Assembly (NCBI GenBank): GCA_000004695.1
Contig: CM000154.2
Span: forward strand, 1,216,001 to 1,280,000
DNA from: Dictyostelium discoideum
Taxonomy: Eukaryota
DNA: 64,000 nucleotides
Direction of reading: 5' to 3'
In this document: one piece after another, positions 3,206-44,870 of the stretch
Position numbering within the stretch: position 1 is the stretch's first letter
How the letters are laid out: each line of letters opens with the position of its first letter
Made by a program: the position numbers and the translations under genes
Notes under the pieces: model-generated
Databases searched by the model: none
The model's input: the letters and a program-made list of their open reading frames with translations, nothing else
What the model was told of the DNA's origin: nothing

Positions 3206-12295
<9,090 letters not shown>

Positions 12296-12356
12296 CTAAA
12301 AAAAAAAAATATGATTAGTATAAAATTAATAAAAATCTATGAGAAATATATATAAA

Positions 12357-12403
<47 letters not shown>

Positions 12404-12411
12404 TACATTAC

Positions 12412-12627
12412 AAGCAGAAGTATGATTTTTAATAGCATTATATAATTCAACATTTAATAATTGGTCAGGTAAAGATGCAATGAATTCAACCAAGAGAGCT
12501 GCTACATCATAGGGATCTTGTGGATCTGGATAATAGAAATTGAAATCACCAGTTCTTTCAAATGAATTTCTCATAAATTTAACTTTTTCATTATTATATT
12601 TTCTAAAGAATAAATCTTCAACATGAC
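12412..12627 (-). CDS. roco9: Roco-family kinase, exon 2 (RhoGAP domain, middle part)
   Basis: Acceptor ...attattattag at 12629-28; donor GTAATG at 12411-10. It encodes HVEDLFFRKYNNEKVKFMRNSFERTGDFNFYYPDPQDPYDVAALLVEFIASLPDQLLNVELYNAIKNHTSA, the RhoGAP core with the conserved V-A-x-LLK-x-F-x-x-LP-x-PLL motif. Phases are consistent (in 1, out 1). The flanking introns are 109 and 116 nt, and the second is poly-A/T rich. Confidence 0.7.
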
Positions 12628-12736
12628 CTAATAATAATAATTATAATTATATAATAATATTTTACTTTATATAAGAATATGAATTACAACAACAACAACC
12701 ACTACTACAAAATTATAAATTATAAATTTTACTTAC

Positions 12737-13553
12737 AATGACCTTCTAAAAATGAAATTGATTTCTCTAATAAAATTGGAATTGATAAACCATTATCTTG
12801 ACGTTTGATTAAAGAATATAATGGTGTACCAAAATATTGAAAATCTGAAAACTGATTACTATTATAGAAATGAATAGGTGGTGATTGTTGATCAAATATT
12901 GGTAATGGTGTATTTGGCATTATAAATTCAAAGTTTGAAATATTTGATTTAATTGATGATGATGAACCATTCTTTTCAGTTTTTAAAGATTTAAATTTTA
13001 ATGAATTATATATATGTTTTAGTTTCGATGATTTTGGTGGTTTTGGTGTTTTCACTGTACCAGACGATGATGATGATGATGCTGCTGACATAGTTGGTGA
13101 TGTTGTTGAAGTTGATGTTATATCTGATGATTCACTAGTTTGTGAATAGAACGAGTCTGATCTAATTCCACCATTACCACCATTATTTGATGGATTATAG
13201 TCAATACTTCTTGTACTTGAAGATCTTAATGATGAATATGAAGTTGAATTTGTGGATGCTGCTAATCTATTTATATTTTCAGAATCACCTTCAACTGATG
13301 GAGTATTTAAGGAATTAGTATTATTATTATTATTATCACCTTCCATAAATTGTTGTTGTTGTTGTTGTTGCTCATCATCTTGCTGTTGTTGTAATTGTTG
13401 TAAAATTTTCTTTTCTTTATCTTTTTTACTTGTTCCAAATAAAGTTTTAAATTTTAATGTTCCACTTCTTGATTTTTTAGTTTCTTCTTTTTCACCAGTA
13501 TCTTCATTTGATCTTTTGGATTTTTTATCAAATAAATTAGCAATTGATGTCAT
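12737..13553 (-). CDS. roco9: Roco-family kinase, exon 1 (N-terminal Ser-rich region and start of RhoGAP domain)
   Basis: ATG at 13553-51 (MTSIANLFDKKSKRS...) follows AT-rich intergenic DNA. The exon ends ...SIPILLEKSISFLEGH with a GTAAGT donor at 12736-31 in phase 1. The IPIL.EK.I.FLE motif is the start of a RhoGAP domain. Confidence 0.7.
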
Positions 13554-19252: not shown

Positions 19253-19607
19253 ATTTTTTTTATTTTTTTTTTTTTTCCAAAATTTTTTTTTTTTTTCCTA
19301 TCAAAAATTTTTCACGCTGTATTTTTTTTTTTTATTTTTTTTATTTTTATATTTTTTTATTTTTTTTTAATCAAGAATAACAATATTTTTAAAATAATAA
19401 TAAATTAAATTAATCTTGTACAATAAAATCCACCCAACCACCCACACACCACTACCACCCCACAAATATTTAAACACACACAAAACATTCACACACAAAT
19501 AATTGTATAATATAAATAAAATATTTTTTCTATATTTTTTTTTTTGTTAAGAAAAAAAAAAAAAAAAAAAAGATTTTTTAGAAAAAAAAAAAAATATTTA
19601 ATTAATC

Positions 19608-22442: not shown

Positions 22443-22542
22443 TAACCACACCCACCCACACCCACTAATACAACACTCAACACTTCTTACATATCTATCT
22501 CTTTATACTTTTATACTTTAAAAATTTCAATTCAATTTTATT

Positions 22543-30730: not shown

Positions 30731-31063
30731 ATGATTTCACAATGTCGAAATTTGAATAAAACAATTCAAAGATTGTCATTGCCATCAAATATATTTAGAT
30801 TACAGTATTTTTCAACAACAACCTCTAGCACAATTCCAAAAGTAACCAACAAGAAATTAAAAGTAACAATAAAAAATAAAGATAAATTGGATATCCCATT
30901 AAATAATTTTGTTAATAATAAAGATAATAACAATGGACCATCACTAAAAATCAATTATGTTGGTGGTGAACTTGAAAATAATCCAACAACATCATCATCA
31001 TCACCTGTACAAACATCTTCAAAATCATCACCACAATCTACAACAACATTTAAAAATAATAAT

Positions 31064-31135
<72 letters not shown>

Positions 31136-33001
31136 TATAATAATAATAGTAATGAAAATAATTCATCAACATTTGTATCATCACATTATAAAGTAAATGA
31201 AGAATCAATGTTATCATATTTAGATAGAAAGAAATTAGTATATAAAATAATTGGTAAACAAATCATTGTTAAAGAGTGTCCATTATGTCATGATACAAAA
31301 GGTAAATTTGATAATTTTTGGAAATTATATATTTCAAGAGAAACAGCTGCTTTCTTCTGTCATAGATGTGGTTGTAAAGGTTCATGGATTGATTTAAAGG
31401 TAAATTTAGGTGATTTATCATTAGATCATTCAAATCATAAACCAATAATAAAATCACCAACAACAACATCAACAAATAAAACATCAAATAATGAAACTGA
31501 AGAATCAACAATTAGTATTGCAGATTTAAAAAAGATGTTAAATTATTCAAATGAATTAAATAATCATCAAGATGTAATAAAGAAATTAACAGGTAAAGAA
31601 AAAGGGGAGAGAGGATTATCAAAAGAGGTATTAGAATTTTATAAAGTTGGTGTAACAAGTCAACAATTCTTTTTTAATGATGAATGGCAAGAACATAAAT
31701 GTATAACATTCCCATGGACTACATTGGATAAAAAAGGTAATATTCAAGTACATCGTTGTAAATTAAGATCAACCAAAGAGAAATCATTACAAAGAATTGA
31801 ACCAAAAGGTGGTAAATGGGGATTCTTTGGTTGGCATACAATACCATCCGATGCAAAGGAGATTATCCTAACAGAGGGTGAATATGATGCAATGGCAGTT
31901 TATCAAGAAACTGGTATTCCCACAATTTCATTACCAAATGGTGCAAATAGTTTACCAATTGCTCTATTACCCCTATTGGAAAGATTTGAAAAGATTTATC
32001 TTTGGATGGACGATGACGTACCCGGTATGGAAGGTGCTGCAAAATTCTCAGAGAAATTAGGAATTCAACGTACTTTTATAGTTTCAACCAAACAAAATGA
32101 TCCAAATGGTCCAAAAGATGCAAACGATGCATTATTGGCTGGCAAAGATTTAAAAGCGATTTTATCAACAGCTGCCAATATACCACATGATCAAATTTGT
32201 GATTTCAGTGATGTAAGATCAATAATACATAATGAATTAAAGGATCCTCTATCGGTTATTGGTAAACAAAGTAAATGGTTCCCTTCATTTAATAAAGTTT
32301 TAAAAGGTCATAGAAAGGGAGAGTTAACCATTTTCTCTGGTCCAACTGGTATTGGTAAAACAAGTGTATTATCCCAATTATCTTTGGATTTCTGTTCACA
32401 GGGTACTAGAACACTTTGGGGTAGTTTTGAATTAAAAGTACCAAGATTGGCCAGAAAAATGTTATCACAATTTTCAAATTGTAATTTAGATAAACATGTT
32501 GAAAATTATCAAGAAATAGCAGACAATTTCTCAAATATGCCAATGTATTTCCTTAGATTCTTTGGTTCAACTCAAGTTGATAAAGTAATAGACGCTATGG
32601 AATATGCTGTTTACGTTCAAGATGTTGAACATATAGTTTTAGATAATTTACAATTCATGTTGGGTTCTCAAGCTAAAGGTATTGAAAGATTTGAAATTAT
32701 GGATGATTCAATTGAAAAACTTCGTAAATTCGCTTCTCAAAAAAATGTACATATCACTTTAGTAATTCATCCAAGAAAACAAGATATCGATCAAGTACTA
32801 AACATTAATGATATCTTTGGTACTGCTAAAGCTACTCAAGAAGCTGATAATGTTATCATTTTACAAAATTCTAAAAATAATCAACGTTATTTAGATATTA
32901 AAAAGAATCGTTTCTCTGGTGATCTTGGTATAATTCCTTTATCTTTTGAAAAAGAAACAAATAGATTTAGTGAATCAAATGAATTTGATAATAATAATTT
33001 A

Positions 33002-33038
<37 letters not shown>

Positions 33039-33044
33039 TAAATT

Positions 33045-33049
<5 letters not shown>
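30731..33049 (+). CDS. Twinkle-type mitochondrial DNA primase-helicase (T7 gp4-like): Zn-finger primase, TOPRIM and DnaB-like helicase domains; single exon
   Basis: ATG at 30731. The N-terminus (MISQCRNLNKTIQRLSLPSNIFRLQYFSTTTS) has the basic/hydroxylated look of a mitochondrial presequence. A CxxC...CxxC zinc ribbon is present (CPLCHDTKGK...CHRCGCKG). A TOPRIM-like segment follows (ILTEGEYDAMAVYQETGIPTISLPNGA...LWMDDDVPG). The helicase carries Walker A GPTGIGKTS and Walker B HIVLDNLQFM, plus an arginine-finger region; this is the same architecture as T7 gp4 and Twinkle. A poly-Asn insert lies near the N-terminus. Confidence 0.85.
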
Positions 33050-33147: not shown

Positions 33148-34128
33148 TTAAATTTTTGAGGATGTTGGTGTTGGAATTTGTTGAAATGACAAATGATTAT
33201 TGTTTGGTGCATAATAGTTATAAGTTTGTTGTTGTTGTTGTTGTTGATGCCATTGACTTTGGTTTGAAATATCTTCATTCGTTGTTGCGGTATTTAGTTG
33301 ACTTCCACAATTTACATAATTATTTGAATAGTAATTGTAATATTGTTGTTGTTGTTGTAGGTGTTGTGGAACATGGTATCTTTGTTGTTGTGGTTGTTGT
33401 GGTGGTTGTTGTTGTTGATAAACCATTTGGTTATAATTTTTATTTTGGAATTGGTAAACTTTTGGACTTTGATTATTTTTAGAAATTAATGGACTATATG
33501 GGTTATTTGGTGAATGATTAGAATGTGGTGTTTGAATATTTTTGTATACCTTTTGGGGTAGTTGAATTAATCCATTTCCATATTTTTTATTTGTTGTACT
33601 TGGACTGTTAAAGTCCCATTTGGATGTAGAGGTAGAAGAAGAATAGTTTATATTTTTAAATACATTACCATGATTTAATGGTGAATGATCAGAGTTGTTT
33701 GATTTACATGGTGCTCCAAAAGAGTAAGACTTCATTAATGTTGGTGTTGTTGGGCTACTTATATTGCATGGTGAAGAATAGTTATTAGGTGACATTGATA
33801 TTGGTGATGAATTTGATGATTCATTATTTAATTTTACATGGTTATTGTAATTATTATTATTATTATTTTTAATTATATTAATATTACTATTTGAATTATT
33901 ATTTGTGTTATTAACACTTGAAATTGAAATTGGTGATAAAGAATTTGAAGGTTTTTCAGTTTTAAAGAAAACTGGAGCGGAGTTTGAAAGAATGTTTGAA
34001 CCATTAAATTCAGTAGGACTTGATTTATTACTATTTGGTTTTGTTAAACCACCTGATAAGGACAACTCTCTTTTTTTAACGGTTTTATTTAAAAGTTTTT
34101 GTTTTAATTTAATTTCTCTTTTTAATTT
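33148..34128 (-). CDS. Asn/Gln/Ser-rich low-complexity protein, exon 2 of 2
   Basis: Acceptor aaaatag at 34130-29; phase 0. It encodes KLKREIKLKQKLLNKTVKKRELSLSGGLTKPNSNKSS... followed by long N/S/Q-rich sequence. The stop is at 33148-50. Confidence 0.5.
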   Translation of the reverse strand, partial: KLKREIKLKQKLLNKTVKKRELSLSGGLTKPNSNKSSPTEFNGSNILSNSAPVFFKTEKPSNSLSPISISSVNNTNNNSNSNINIIKNNNNNNYNNHVKLNNESSNSSPISMSPNNYSSPCNISSPTTPTLMKSYSFGAPCKSNNSDHSPLNHGNVFKNINYSSSTSTSKWDFNSPSTTNKKYGNGLIQLPQKVYKNIQTPHSNHSPNNPYSPLISKNNQSPKVYQFQNKNYNQMVYQQQQPPQQPQQQRYHVPQHLQQQQQYYNYYSNNYVNCGSQLNTATTNEDISNQSQWHQQQQQQQTYNYYAPNNNHLSFQQIPTPTSSKI

Positions 34129-34213
34129 CTATTTTAAATGATTAAAAAAAAAAAAAGTTAATATATTTTATAAATTGAAAAAAAAAATAAATAAATTAAA
34201 TAAAAAATTTTAC

Positions 34214-34717
34214 CTTTATTTTTTTCTTTAAATTTGAATTTAAATTTTGTGTTGATTGATTCTTTGAAGAGTTTGAATTATTGTTACTGATTGAAGATTG
34301 GGTAGTAATATTGTTGGTATCATTTTTAGAATTTTGTTTTGAATCTTCATCGGAGTCATCATTATCATCATCATCACTAAAAATATTATTATTATTTTCT
34401 TCATTTTTATTTTTATTTAAAATTGAATTTAAAAAATTTTCTGCTTGATTAAATTCAATTGTATTATTTTCTAAATTGTTTTTTTCTTTTAAAAGGGGTT
34501 GTTTATTTATAATATTATTACCATTTAAAAATTCACCTGGTAAATCAATTATAACTTTTTCATTATCTTGGCATTTAAAAATTACCATTGTGTTTTTATT
34601 ATTAGTAGTATTGGTATTGGTATTATTATTATTATTATTATTATTATAAATATTATTATTATTATTAATATTATTATTATTATTATTAATATTATTATTG
34701 TTACTAATAGTATCCAT
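34214..34717 (-). CDS. Asn-rich low-complexity protein, exon 1
   Basis: ATG at 34717-15 gives MDTISNNNNINNN...MVIFKCQDNEKVIIDLPGEFLNGNNIINKQ...NSNLKKKIK; the donor GTAAAA at 34213-12 is phase 0. The function is unknown. Confidence 0.45.
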
Positions 34718-35571
34718 ATTTAGTATTGTGAAATTATTATCTATTAATAATGAAATTAACAATAAAAAAAAGTTGTGATCTTGAAAAAATATAATTTAAT
34801 GTTACAAATAAAAAATGTGGGTTTATTTATTATTTTTATTTTTAATTTTTTAACGAGCAATTATTCAAACTAAGATTTAATTAATTTTTTTTTTTTTTAA
34901 TATTTTTTTAATTTTTTTTTTTTTGTTTTTTTTTTATAATTAATACTAATTGTAGATATTTATTTTAGTTCAATTTTATTTTTAAAAAATAATAATAACA
35001 TAAATTAATTTGGAAACTAAATTAAAACTTTTAAAATTTGAGTTGACTTTTTTTTTTTTTTTTCAATAAAAAATAATTTCCAATGAAGATATATATTAAA
35101 GTGGGGGGTTTGTCAAAATCAGGAAAAAAAAAAAATATAAAAATTGGGGTAATAAAATAAACCACACAAACACATTAAATTCTAGAATTTCCGTATTCAA
35201 ATATTAAAAAAAAATTTTTTTTTAGAACAACACACAACCACACAACCCATAAATAATTTTTTTTTTTTATTTAAATAAAAAATCGTAAGGACAATAACAA
35301 CAATAACACACTTAAAAAGACAAATTTGATTTCATAAAACTTTATTTTTATATTTTTTTTTTATTTTAATTTTGACCCTATTTATTTTTTTTTTCTTAAT
35401 TTTCCTTTTTAATTCCTTTTGTTTAATTCCTATATATTTGAAAATAATATTAGTAAAGGATATTTTCATTTAAAATTAATTTGAAAAGATTATATATGTT
35501 TTTATAATTACAACAATAACATGCACCTCTTTTTTTTTTTTTTTTTTTTAATTATTATTATTATTATTATC

Positions 35572-35614
<43 letters not shown>

Positions 35615-36160
35615 TAATTAAAAATAAAAATATTAAAATTGTGTTTAATTCCTAATACTCTAGGGCAAAAAGATGGATGCGTGTGTTTCCAAACAATAAA
35701 ATGAATAAATAAAAACAATACAAATATGGTTTATAATAGATTAAATAATCTTAGTTAGAGAATGTGTGTTTGAGTGTGTGTTAATTTTTGTGTGTATTTA
35801 TATTTGAGAGAAGTGTGTGGGTCTAAAAATAATCTCTCATTTGTATACTCTTTATATAGTAATTTTAGTGGGTTGTTTATTATTATTGTTTTTTTTTATT
35901 TTTTTAATTTATTTTACAAAAATTTGATTAAATAGAGTGATTATATACAAATAATTATTTTAAATAAATAAATGTATTTTTTTTATTTAAAAATTATTTT
36001 TTCTTTTCCAAGTGCTAGTGATAGAGAGGAGAAAAAAAAATCAAAAAAAAAAAAAAAAAAAAAATCAAAAAAAGGTTTATTGTGTTTTAAGGGTGTGTTT
36101 ATGTGTGTGTGTTGTTAATAACAAATAAATAATGAGTGAATTTAATATTTATATGATATT

Positions 36161-36195
<35 letters not shown>

Positions 36196-36282
36196 TTATA
36201 ATTTTATATTATTATTATAATAATTTTAAATCAATTGTTTTTTTTAAAAAAAAAAATTTTTTTTTTTTTTTTTTTTAAGGGA

Positions 36283-36320
<38 letters not shown>

Positions 36321-36435
36321 CCCCGGGGGGATAATTTTTTAAAATTTTAATTTTCCCCTAAATTTTTGGAAAAAAAAAAAAAAAGTTTTAAATATATTTT
36401 TTTTATAAAAAAAAAAAAATTTTTAAAAAGAGGGG

Positions 36436-36468
<33 letters not shown>

Positions 36469-36636
36469 TTTTTTTTTTTTTTTTAAGATTGTTAAATAAT
36501 TATTAAAAATTATATAATAATAATAAAAAAAAAAAAAAATAATTAAATTTGCAATTAAATTAAAAAAATAAATAAATAAAATCGAAAATAAATAATAATT
36601 AAAATATAAATATAAAATTTTATATATTTTGTATAG

Positions 36637-36680
<44 letters not shown>

Positions 36681-36722
36681 AATAATTTTTTATTATTATT
36701 TAAATATATATAGAATTAAAAA

Positions 36723-37020
36723 ATGACTATTATGTCAGATATTATCGCACAAAGAACAATCTTGCTAATCGCGGATTTTTCATCGATTATTGGATGTTCT
36801 TTGGTTTTAATTGGATTTTGGAGGTTAAAACTTTTACGTAATCACATTACAAAAATTATATCATTATTTTGCGCAACTTCTCTATTTAAAGATGTAATAT
36901 CAACAATTATCACATTACTGTATAAACCCGACCAAACAGAATCTGGTTTTCCTTGTTATCTTCATGCAATAGTAATTACTTTTGGTTCATTAGCATGTTG
37001 GCTTTGGACTCTTATGTTAT
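36723..37020 (+). CDS. carB: cAMP receptor (cAR family class-E GPCR), exon 1 (TM1-TM3)
   Basis: ATG at 36723. It encodes [99 protein letters not shown]. From memory this is near-identical to D. discoideum cAR1 ([53 protein letters not shown]...[26 protein letters not shown]) but not identical, so it is a paralog. The donor GTATGT at 37021 is phase 1. The spliced length is 375 aa, which matches cAR2, so I call it carB tentatively. Family membership is certain; the paralog assignment is not. Confidence 0.7.
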
Positions 37021-37120
37021 GTATGTTTTTTTATTTTTTTATTTTCCTTATAAAAAAAAAAAAAAAAAAAAATTAAAAAAATTAATATTAATATTAAAAT
37101 TTTAATTTTAATTAAAATAG

Positions 37121-37852
37121 CATTTAGTATTTATAATTTAATAGTAAGAAGAGAACCAGAACCAGAAAGATTTGAAAAATTTTATTTTTGTCTTTGTTAT
37201 GGATTACCATTGATTAGTACGATTGTTATGTTATCAACACATATTATTCAACCAGTTGGTGGTTGGTGTTGGATTGGTGATAACTATGATGGGTATAGAT
37301 TTGGATTATTTTATGGGCCATTCTTTTTCATTTGGGGAACATCAGCAATTTTGGTTGGATTAACATCGAAATATACATACTCTGTAATACGTAGTAGTGT
37401 ATCTGATAATAAGGATAAACATATGACCTATCAATTTAAATTGATAAATTATATCGTTGTATTTTTGGTTTGTTGGGTATTTGCAATCGTTAATCGTATT
37501 CTAAATGGTTTAAATCAATTTCCAACGGTTCCAAATGTTTTACACACCTATTTCAGTGTTTCCCACGGTTTCTATGCTTCCATCACTTTTATTTACAATA
37601 ATCCATTGATGTGGCGTTACTTTGGTGCAAAATTCTTATTGATCTTTAGTAAATTTGGTTTATTTGTTCAAGCTCAACAACGTTTGGAATTAAATAAAAA
37701 TAATAATAATCCATCACCAATTATGAGATCAAAGAATGCTCTAGATAATGGTGCCGACTCTTCGGTTGTAGAATTACCTTGTCTCTCAAAAGCTGATTCT
37801 TTATCACTTGATGCTGAAAATAATATTGAAACTCCAAAAGAAAATGAAAATC

Positions 37853-37890
<38 letters not shown>

Positions 37891-37950
37891 AATCATTATA
37901 ATAATAATAATAACAATAATAATATAAATAATAAAAATGATATGATTTAA
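37121..37950 (+). CDS. carB: cAMP receptor, exon 2 (TM4-TM7 and His/Asn-rich C-terminal tail)
   Basis: Acceptor attaaaatag at 37119-20. It encodes [38 protein letters not shown]...[125 protein letters not shown]...; the stop is at 37948-50. This is collinear with cAR1 throughout. Confidence 0.7.
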
Positions 37951-38055
37951 AAGTGATAATAAAATAAATAATAAATAATCAATAATCAATAATAAGAACC
38001 TTCCCAAATAATATTTCAACAACTAAAAACGTGATTAACTTTTTTTTTTTTTGAA

Positions 38056-38093
<38 letters not shown>

Positions 38094-38146
38094 ATAACAA
38101 ATCATGATTAAATAATATTATTTAAATGATATATATAATTTTTTAG

Positions 38147-38207
<61 letters not shown>

Positions 38208-38785: not shown

Positions 38786-38788
<3 letters not shown>

Positions 38789-39073
38789 ATATACAAAATT
38801 CATTTTAACTTTTAAAGTTTGTGTCTGATTTTCACCATCATTTTCTATAAACTTTTTTAAAAAATTTAAAATCTTTGAACCAGTTGATTTATTTTCTTTT
38901 AATTCTTTTTTAATTTGTCTAATTTGATATTGTTGTTGTAGGTGTTGTTGTTGTCTTTGTCTACGAATTCTTCTCATTTCATCACGGTTGAAATTTTCGT
39001 TATTATTCATTGGAAAATATTCAAGGTTATTTAATTTCTTTTCAGTTGATAATTCATTATTTGTTGAGACCAT
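38786..39073 (-). CDS. Hypothetical small basic protein (95 aa)
   Basis: An ATG-initiated ORF encodes MVSTNNELSTEKKLNNLEYFPMNNNENFNRDEMRRIRRQRQQQHLQQQYQIRQIKKELKENKSTGSKILNFLKKFIENDGENQTQTLKVKMNFVY. It sits alone in an AT-rich intergenic region and I recognise no homology. It may be spurious or part of an unspliced small gene. Confidence 0.25.
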
Positions 39074-40710: not shown

Positions 40711-42656
40711 CTAATTATTTTTAGAAATGTCAACAATTTTAGATAGTGTTGCAATTGCCATAACTCTTGAGTCTTTATCAGAATCGGATTGAGATACTTC
40801 AAATAAAAATTGAGCAATATCTTCAATTTCATCAGTGTAGTCTTGATCAATAACTGACTTTGTAATTGTCTCTCTATAGAATACTCTTGATAGTGAATAA
40901 AGTAATGACCTTCTCACATTTGAATCTCTATGTGATTTAAATGACCACAAAAATCTAACCAACTCTTTTGATATCATTCTAGTATCATTTGAATTACCTG
41001 CACATTCAACAATAACACCCAATGTATGAATTAATCTACTTAATAAAAAACTATCATATCCCATCATCATCTCACCACCACTAGCACCACCTTCATAACA
41101 TTGAGTAACTTTATCAAATCCACTTAATAATGGATAAAAATAAATTTTTACAAATTTATGGAATCTATTTGATTTTATTATTGGTCTAGGTGTCTTTCTT
41201 TGTCCCCATTTTCTAACAATACCAATTTGTTTTAAAATTGGTAATTTACTACTTTCACCACTACCACCACCACCATTAATATTAAATATACTATTTTTAG
41301 ACTCTTCATACTGTTGTTGTTGTTGTTCTTGTTGTTGTTGTCTTTGAGTATTTTGTTGATAATTTAAAGCTGATAATTCTTTAGCAGATTCAGAGATTGT
41401 TTCCAAGATTTCAATTCTTTGACCAATGCTAAAATTCTTTTGTTTGAAAGCATCAGTGAGATAAGGAATTACTAATGAAGTTGATTGAGTTGCTAAGGAA
41501 ACTAATGATTCATGACGAATTGATGAGAATGATTCTAAATCATATTCATTTGTTAAATGAATTAATGAATTTGCAAGTTGTACACTTAATTCATCTAAAT
41601 CATCAGGTAATGACCAAACTATATTTGATATTGAATTTAATGCATTCTCCCATGACTCTGCTGTATGTTTTTGACTTTGTAATTCTAATAAACAGTCTCT
41701 TAAATATATCTTTTTTTTAATACCATTTAAATCTGATTCATCATCATCTAAATCATATGGTTTTAAATCATCATCATCCTCATCCTCCTCCTCATCTTCT
41801 GAATTGATTTCTGTAATTTTTGGTCCATTTTGTACTACTTCTTCATCTTCATCTTCATCTTCATCTTCATCATCTTCATCATTCATAATTTTATCAGGAT
41901 CATCATATTTTTTAAATTCTTTTTCTAATAATTTTTTATAATGTTCTTTTGAGCTATTTGATTGTTTTTTTTCATTTCCAATATTTGATGATGCTGTACT
42001 GTTGCTTGTTGTATTGGTGGTGGTAGTGGTATTGGTGGTCGTTAAAGGTTCTTGAAAAATTGGTTTAAAATTTAAAGAAAAACATTGTTGATCAGGTGTA
42101 TCTAGTGAATAGTTGAATTTTAATGGTTCTGATGAATTATTATTATTATTATTATTATTAAATAATTTTGAAAATTGTTCAGCTACAAACATACCACGAT
42201 TATTTATATTTGAAATTGTAAATTTTAAATGTACATCAATACCACTTAATAATAAATGTTTAATATGTTCAATCTTATCTGATGGTAATGGTTTAATAGT
42301 TGATGTTGATGTTGAATTTGCTATTGATAATTTTTCAATAAAAAAAATTATTGATCTTGTAATATAAGAATGTTGCTCATTTGTACAATGTCTAATAAAG
42401 TAAGGATCTTTCCATGATTTTAATAAATTATTTAAAATTAAAAATAATAATGGTTCTTTATCTTCATTTGTACTACCTTCAAATAATAGTATAGAATAAA
42501 GTAAATCTAAATAACAATTTTGACTATTATTATCCATTACTTTTAAAATTAATATTTTATTTATCATTATATGTACAATCATTGAAATTTCATTTCTTCT
42601 TTTAAAAATTTCTAAAAATATTAATTTAAAAACATCTTTATATATATTATAACTAA
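40711..42656 (-). CDS. Tel2/TELO2 (Clk-2)-like HEAT-repeat protein, exon 2 of 2 (acidic CK2-type linker and conserved C-terminal domain)
   Basis: An acceptor ag at 42658-57 follows poly-T; the phase matches exon 1. A central acidic block (DEDDEDEDEDEDEE) is followed by LKPYDLDDDESDLNGIKKKIYLRDCLLELQ...SWENALNSISNIVWSLPDDLDELSVQLANSLIHL. I recall this as similar to the human TELO2 segment SLDSDDDLKPYDMSGD...VRDCVEAL. The C-terminal helical region follows and the stop is at 40711-13. Family assignment is moderately confident. Confidence 0.5.

Positions 42657-44819: not shown

Positions 44820-44870
<51 letters not shown>
44820..44870. repeat. (GT)25 dinucleotide microsatellite at the 5' end of mms19 intron 2
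   Basis: A perfect 50-nt GT alternation begins 6 nt after the GTAAGT donor. Confidence 0.95.

Follow-up and report, generated by a model that had tools for sequence, protein, structure and literature searches.

Structure and conservation of carB, the gene for the cAMP receptor cAR2, and of its upstream region in Dictyostelium discoideum

The carB gene of Dictyostelium discoideum, which encodes the cAMP receptor cAR2, is part of the annotation of the reference genome. It has been knocked out, and suppressor screens that made use of it led to SCAR/WAVE. It was reportedly cloned in 1993, and PMC2149354 cites Saxe et al. (Genes Dev 7:262, 1993) for cAR2/carB. Its relative cAR1 (carA) is the high-affinity receptor of the aggregation stage and shares with cAR2 the Dicty_CAR seven-transmembrane (7TM) architecture and a homologous phase-1 intron. 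Two further receptors, cAR3 (carC, 490 aa) and cAR4 (carD, 443 aa), are longer than cAR2.

Binding of cAMP and signalling through heterotrimeric G proteins are described for the cAR family in the literature (PMC2149354; 10.1101/694810). The affinity of cAR2 for extracellular cAMP is low, with a Kd of >5 µM, compared with 25–230 nM for cAR1, and chimera studies place the main cause of this gap in the second half of extracellular loop 2 (ECL2) (bioRxiv 10.1101/694810). The two receptors also differ in the timing of their expression, which is early for cAR1 and late, in prestalk cells, for cAR2 (10.1101/694810; PMC6345914). cAR2 is expressed in prestalk cells of the presumptive tip, and disruption of carB stops development in the tight mound, before a tip has formed (PMC2149354). 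CarB has been described as having a lower affinity and a later expression than CarA, and as directing prestalk cells in their tip-oriented migration (PMC10445921).

We analysed a stretch of 64,000 nucleotides of D. discoideum DNA (the window) that contains a gene with a 375-aa product. An exact look-up shows this product to be identical to UniRef100_P34907 "Cyclic AMP receptor 2" (CAR2_DICDI), XP_636845.1, and EAL63320.1 of D. discoideum AX4. The preliminary description of the locus had named the gene as probably cAR2 (carB), which is borne out by this exact full-length match. The match to P34907 settles the paralog as carB and not carA, carC, carD, or a cAMP-receptor-like (crl) gene. We regard it as practically certain that the locus is carB and that its product is cAR2, which is among the four cell-surface cAMP receptors of D. 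discoideum. There is nothing new in this identification, as the gene is already known and well studied.

The Pfam family Dicty_CAR (PF05462, class E GPCR) matches cAR2 with a score of 598.3 bits (curated cut-off 21; E = 3.4e-180), and the match spans residues 2–306 of the protein and profile positions 2–304 of 305. The match to the Pfam family 7tm_2 is weak (9.8e-10). The cDNA entry AAB25436.2, "cAMP receptor subtype 2" (1993), shows a single difference at residue 92, where it has Leu and not Cys (C92L). This residue belongs to the conserved CWLWTL motif in TM3 and is encoded by TGT at 36996–36998. Because the nine other cAR2 sequences all have Cys92, a residue that is near-invariant across the family, the Leu92 of AAB25436.2 is probably the outlier, either a mistake in this old entry or a variant of the strain.

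carB consists of two exons separated by a single intron (Table 1). Joining the exons gives an uninterrupted 1128 nt, corresponding to 375 codons and a stop codon. This splice reproduces P34907 exactly, so the two exons, their coordinates, and the spliced length of 375 aa proposed earlier are correct. When every possible single GT..AG excision was tried, removal of this intron alone reproduced the 375-aa protein. Residues 1–99 and the first base of codon 100, with TM1, TM2, and the greater part of TM3, come from exon 1. Exon 2 supplies the remainder of TM3, the helices up to TM7, helix 8, and a C-terminal tail predicted to be disordered. The genome as a whole has 22.7% GC.

Table 1. Features of the carB locus and its surroundings; positions are those of the window.
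Feature	Positions	Strand	Description
Twinkle-like primase-helicase	30731–33049	+	Toprim + DnaB_C, 772 aa
Divergent neighbour	33148–34717	-	Two exons, ~494 aa, low-complexity, Asn/Gln/Ser-rich
Divergent intergenic region	34718–36722		2005 bp, 13.6% GC; from carB to the ATG of the minus-strand gene at 34717
Conserved block (candidate promoter block)	35640–36240	+	About -1080 to -480 from the ATG; five-species alignment
Probable base-calling artefact	36190–36440		42 mismatches to the second D. discoideum assembly, GCA_054883475.1 (L001)
carB exon 1	36723–37020	+	298 nt; ATG at 36723; donor GTATGT at 37021
carB intron	37021–37120	+	100 nt, GTATGT...AAATAG, 5% GC, phase 1
carB exon 2	37121–37950	+	830 nt including stop TAA at 37948–37950
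(CAT)11 encoding His346–His356	37858–37890	+	Tandem repeat finder: period 3, 13.7 copies
TELO2 (Telomere_reg-2) homolog	40711–42582	-	
MMS19-like gene	About 43890 onward	+	Called in L001

A phase-1 intron is found at the homologous codon in carA (loci L002 and L003), carB, carC, and carD (the last two in locus L004). The context of this intron is common to the car genes, which read CWLWTL(C/M)L before it and (A/S)(F/I)SIY from the interrupted codon onward. Exon 1 is 298 nt long in carB, 301 nt in carA, 304 nt in carD, and 334 nt in carC. An exon 1 of 298 nt, followed by phase-1 introns of 87–217 nt, is also found in carB of D. firmibasis, D. citrinum, D. dimigraforme, and "D. cf. discoideum". 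The conservation of the intron position noted previously therefore stands across the four paralogs. Its placement after TM3 does not strictly hold, since codon 100, which the intron splits, is predicted to lie inside the cytoplasmic end, in the last turns, of TM3 (predicted helix 76–107).

We compared the four paralogs in a MAFFT alignment, in which residues 1–280 define the core and the cAR3 sequence was read from locus L004. Identity between cAR2 and cAR1 is 74.0% in the exon 2 core (residues 100–280), 61.9% in exon 1, 69.8% over residues 1–280, 28.9% in the tail, and 59.8% over all aligned positions. BLASTP gives an identity of 64–66% for the same pair. The value of about 75% previously given for the similarity to cAR1 is thus correct for the exon 2 core only, and exceeds the values for exon 1, for the core, and for the whole protein (60–66%). 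The core identity among the cAR paralogs is about 69–71%, with cAR2 at 68.8% to cAR3 and at 71.0% to cAR4. As the paralogs are this alike, similarity to cAR1 could not have picked the paralog, whereas the length and the exact match do. In the second half of ECL2, cAR2 contains DNYDG (residues 153–157) where cAR1 has VSFTG, and DNYDG is invariant in ten cAR2 sequences.

The genes carD (6001–7427) and carC (12119–13427) lie on the same strand of L004, about 4.7 kb apart, with one minus-strand gene of the Ras/Roc family between them. The cAR4-like and cAR3-like genes of D. dimigraforme carry consecutive locus tags. Only carA and carB orthologs have been reported from D. purpureum (PMC3188802). 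The proximity of carC and carD fits a local duplication giving the two paralogs that are reported missing from this species.

To what extent the locus could be something other than an intact carB can be judged from these comparisons and from the orthologs. The position of the intron and a core identity of ~70% are common to all cAR paralogs, so that collinearity with cAR1 would fit carA, carC, or carD as well, and a crl gene was also considered. The match to cAR2 is 100%, however, against 59.8–66% for cAR1, 56–67% for cAR4, and 68.8% (core) for cAR3, and the carA, carD, and carC loci were retrieved from contigs other than that of carB. Furthermore, a BLASTP search, which had been proposed as a check for a best match to carC, carD, or a crl gene, returned cAR2 as the best match and cAR1 (P0012) and cAR4 (P0013) as the next D. 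discoideum sequences (56–67%), with no crl protein among the 19 matches at E <= 1e-10. The probability that the gene is another cAMP receptor paralog or a crl gene is accordingly negligible. A decaying, non-functional copy, whose low-complexity tail would reflect relaxed constraint, might be suspected from the C-terminal 30 residues, which form a length-variable His/Asn repeat. This is contradicted by the intact reading frame and canonical splice sites of carB, by the strong published phenotype of its disruption (PMC2149354), and by the codon changes in the four other species. In codons 1–340, the ratio of synonymous to nonsynonymous changes is 75:3 in D. firmibasis, 45:0 in D. citrinum, 51:2 in D. 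dimigraforme, and 24:1 in D. cf. discoideum, and neither frameshifts or stop codons nor a dN/dS near 1 were seen in the orthologs of these four species. These counts indicate strong purifying selection on the receptor core, which rules out a decaying copy for all practical purposes.

The tail is the part of carB that varies. The run of 11 His described for it previously is confirmed as a pure (CAT)11 tract, immediately followed by an AAT-rich poly-Asn stretch. The tail also differs, as had been stated, from the Ser-rich tail of cAR1, with 8 Ser and 12 His among 109 residues in cAR2 and 18 Ser among 125 residues in cAR1. The location of the His tract in the cytoplasmic tail, where cAR1 has its regulatory serines, and the presence of a His/Asn-rich stretch at the aligned position in the tail of D. 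discoideum cAR3 could suggest that the tract serves cAR2 as a functional module, such as a sensor of metal or pH or a regulatory element. The distribution of the tract argues against such a role. Strains of D. discoideum have runs of 11, 11, and 10 His, isolates of "D. cf. discoideum" have runs of 10 and 5, and there is one His each in cAR2 of D. firmibasis, D. citrinum, and D. dimigraforme; residues outside the run are 98–100% conserved among the orthologs. A pure (CAT)11 in a tail that is predicted to be disordered is, moreover, the pattern of neutral triplet-repeat slippage. We consider a functional module improbable, and the His/Asn tail is most likely a young, length-polymorphic, neutral (CAT)n/(AAT)n expansion in a predicted disordered tail. 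The poly-His tract should therefore not be read as a signature of cAR2.

The AlphaFold model of cAR2, calculated from an alignment of 20 sequences, has a pTM of 0.67 and a pLDDT of about 80–95 in the core. The predicted helices comprise residues 2–34, 41–66, 76–107, 114–138, 156–191, 197–229, and 235–259, followed by helix 8 (261–276), and a short β-hairpin is predicted in ECL2 (142–151). Hydropathy alone reveals six segments; TM7 falls under a simple threshold, yet is a clear helix in the model. The ~80 residues of the tail from 298 to 375 have a pLDDT below 50 and are predicted to be disordered. The best Foldseek matches are GPCRs of the Frizzled (class F), adhesion (class B2), and class A groups, with a probability of 1.00 and TM-scores of 0.5–0.79, whereas the sequence identity of cAR2 to these metazoan structures is just 11–18%. 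A PDB sequence search and a Foldseek fold search found no solved structure of any Dicty_CAR member. Weak PDB matches at residues 330–360 pair the His run with expression tags of unrelated proteins and were ignored.

carB is separated from a divergently transcribed gene by an AT-rich region, which had been described as unusually long, at about 2 kb, and as shared by the two genes. Both statements agree with our measurements (Table 1), the region being long in its local context. In the 21-kb locus of L001, the gaps flanking carB measure 1985 and 2706 bp, compared with 99, 155, 231, and 794 bp for the other called intergenic gaps. The corresponding gap measures 1749–1917 bp in four other Dictyostelium species, in which the gene order is kept.

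Alignment of the five species reveals a conserved block within this region. Most 50-bp bins of the block are 68–86% invariant, with the exception of those at 35968–36067 (24–36%). The invariance is 0–30% in, for example, 35518–35617 and 36518–36667. Invariant runs in the block reach 31 bp, and the invariant blocks include AAAAGATGGATGCGTGTGTT, GTGTGGGTCTAAAAATAATCTC, ATTAAATAGAGTGATTATATACAAATAA, and TGAGTGAATTTAATATTTATATGATATTTCC. A second, weaker conserved zone is located at 35018–35470, nearer to the divergent gene. Two units composed of a TATA-like box and an oligo-dT stretch are found in the block, at about 35850–35905 and 36148–36190. A DUSE-like element, AACCCATAA, at 35244–35252 was considered as a possible small-RNA promoter element and dropped, as the other species do not share it. 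Scans of the whole window gave no Rfam match at gathering thresholds and no tRNA, and thus there is no evidence of a known RNA gene in the conserved upstream block.

GT repeats in the block also fit the GBF element as published, (T/G)G(T/G)G(T/G)G(T/G) (PMC2257962). Nine matches to this heptamer, KGKGKGK, are located at 35763–36112, where GT boxes lie at 35763–35822 and 36092–36112, and sixteen in the whole region upstream of carB. In the whole window 93 such G-box heptamers are found versus 31 expected, and similar clusters, in which the matches overlap, occur in other intergenic regions, for example at 19430–19497 and 22446–22464. A perfect (GT)n microsatellite of ~25 units at 44820–44870 (plus strand) accounts for a quarter of the G-box-pattern matches in the window, which calls for caution with naive counts of KGKGKGK. 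The matches upstream of carB are only a hint.

Comparison with the second D. discoideum assembly indicates that part of the carB promoter is probably misrepresented in the window. At 40 of the 42 mismatches listed in Table 1, the base in the window copies its neighbour, a "smearing" of homopolymers that changes, for example, ATTATTATTAT of the other assembly into AAAAAAAAAAA and ACTGTTTGATT into CCCCGGGGGGAT. The outgroup sequence L008 sides with L001 in 33 cases and with the window in 5, and the four other species agree with L001, not with the window, at 36190–36440. The window and L001 also differ in length, by 12 bp at 36274–36285 and by 9 bp in a T run at 36641–36676. In the rest of 34000–38200, the 4.2 kb that were aligned in detail, the two assemblies are identical except for a homopolymer at about 38180–38200.

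Where the window reads CCCCGGGGGGATAATTTTTT, the other species all read ACTGTTTGATTAATTTATT, and TTAAATTATTTGTAATAATAG is likewise shared by all other species in this stretch. The alignments thus point to a probable base-calling artefact in the source assembly of the window, which would hide two more conserved promoter elements. After correction for this artefact, the conserved block spans about -1080 to -330. As ~250 bp of the promoter are apparently mis-called in the window copy, motif scans or primers derived from it would be wrong.

The gene order around carB, consisting of a Twinkle-like helicase (+), a low-complexity gene (-), the intergenic gap, and carB (+), is conserved in the four other species. 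The low-complexity gene corresponds to the open reading frames 33148–34065 and 34196–34762 and to a 494-aa minus-strand gene called in L001. Its product has no match to a Pfam family, and its counterparts at the same position in the four species are 466–529 aa long. The neighbours of carB (the Twinkle-like, TELO2, and MMS19-like genes) are of housekeeping types.

A 95-aa open reading frame, MVSTNNELSTEKKLNN...KVKMNFVY, lies at 38786–39073 on the minus strand, convergent to carB and 835 bp downstream of it. It has no Pfam family and is uncalled in the L001 annotation. The frame is intact in four other Dictyostelium species, with 79–95% amino-acid identity, and corresponds to a 94-aa gene in D. 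firmibasis. Its conservation suggests that it is probably a real small gene. In D. citrinum, a gene of 1053 aa (L006, 6726–9887, plus strand) is located between carB and the conserved small open reading frame. At that position, no such gene is called in the other three species D. discoideum, D. firmibasis, and D. dimigraforme, and the D. citrinum gene is possibly an insertion or mobile element.

No dissection of the carB/cAR2 promoter was found among the papers searched. By footprinting across species, the 2-kb upstream region can be reduced to a block of ~600–750 bp that is worth testing. Tentatively, this block may be a control region for the tip- and prestalk-specific, post-aggregative expression of carB, possibly acting through the G-box-like (GBF-type) GT repeats. 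The units of TATA-like box and oligo-dT could perhaps be distal transcription starts, in which case carB would have a long 5' leader, a parallel to carA and its alternative promoters. In the resulting scheme, the conserved upstream block and its G-box-like repeats would drive the expression of carB in prestalk cells after aggregation. There, according to the ligand, affinity, expression, and phenotype described in the literature, cAR2 would bind extracellular cAMP with low affinity and would be needed for the formation of the tip.
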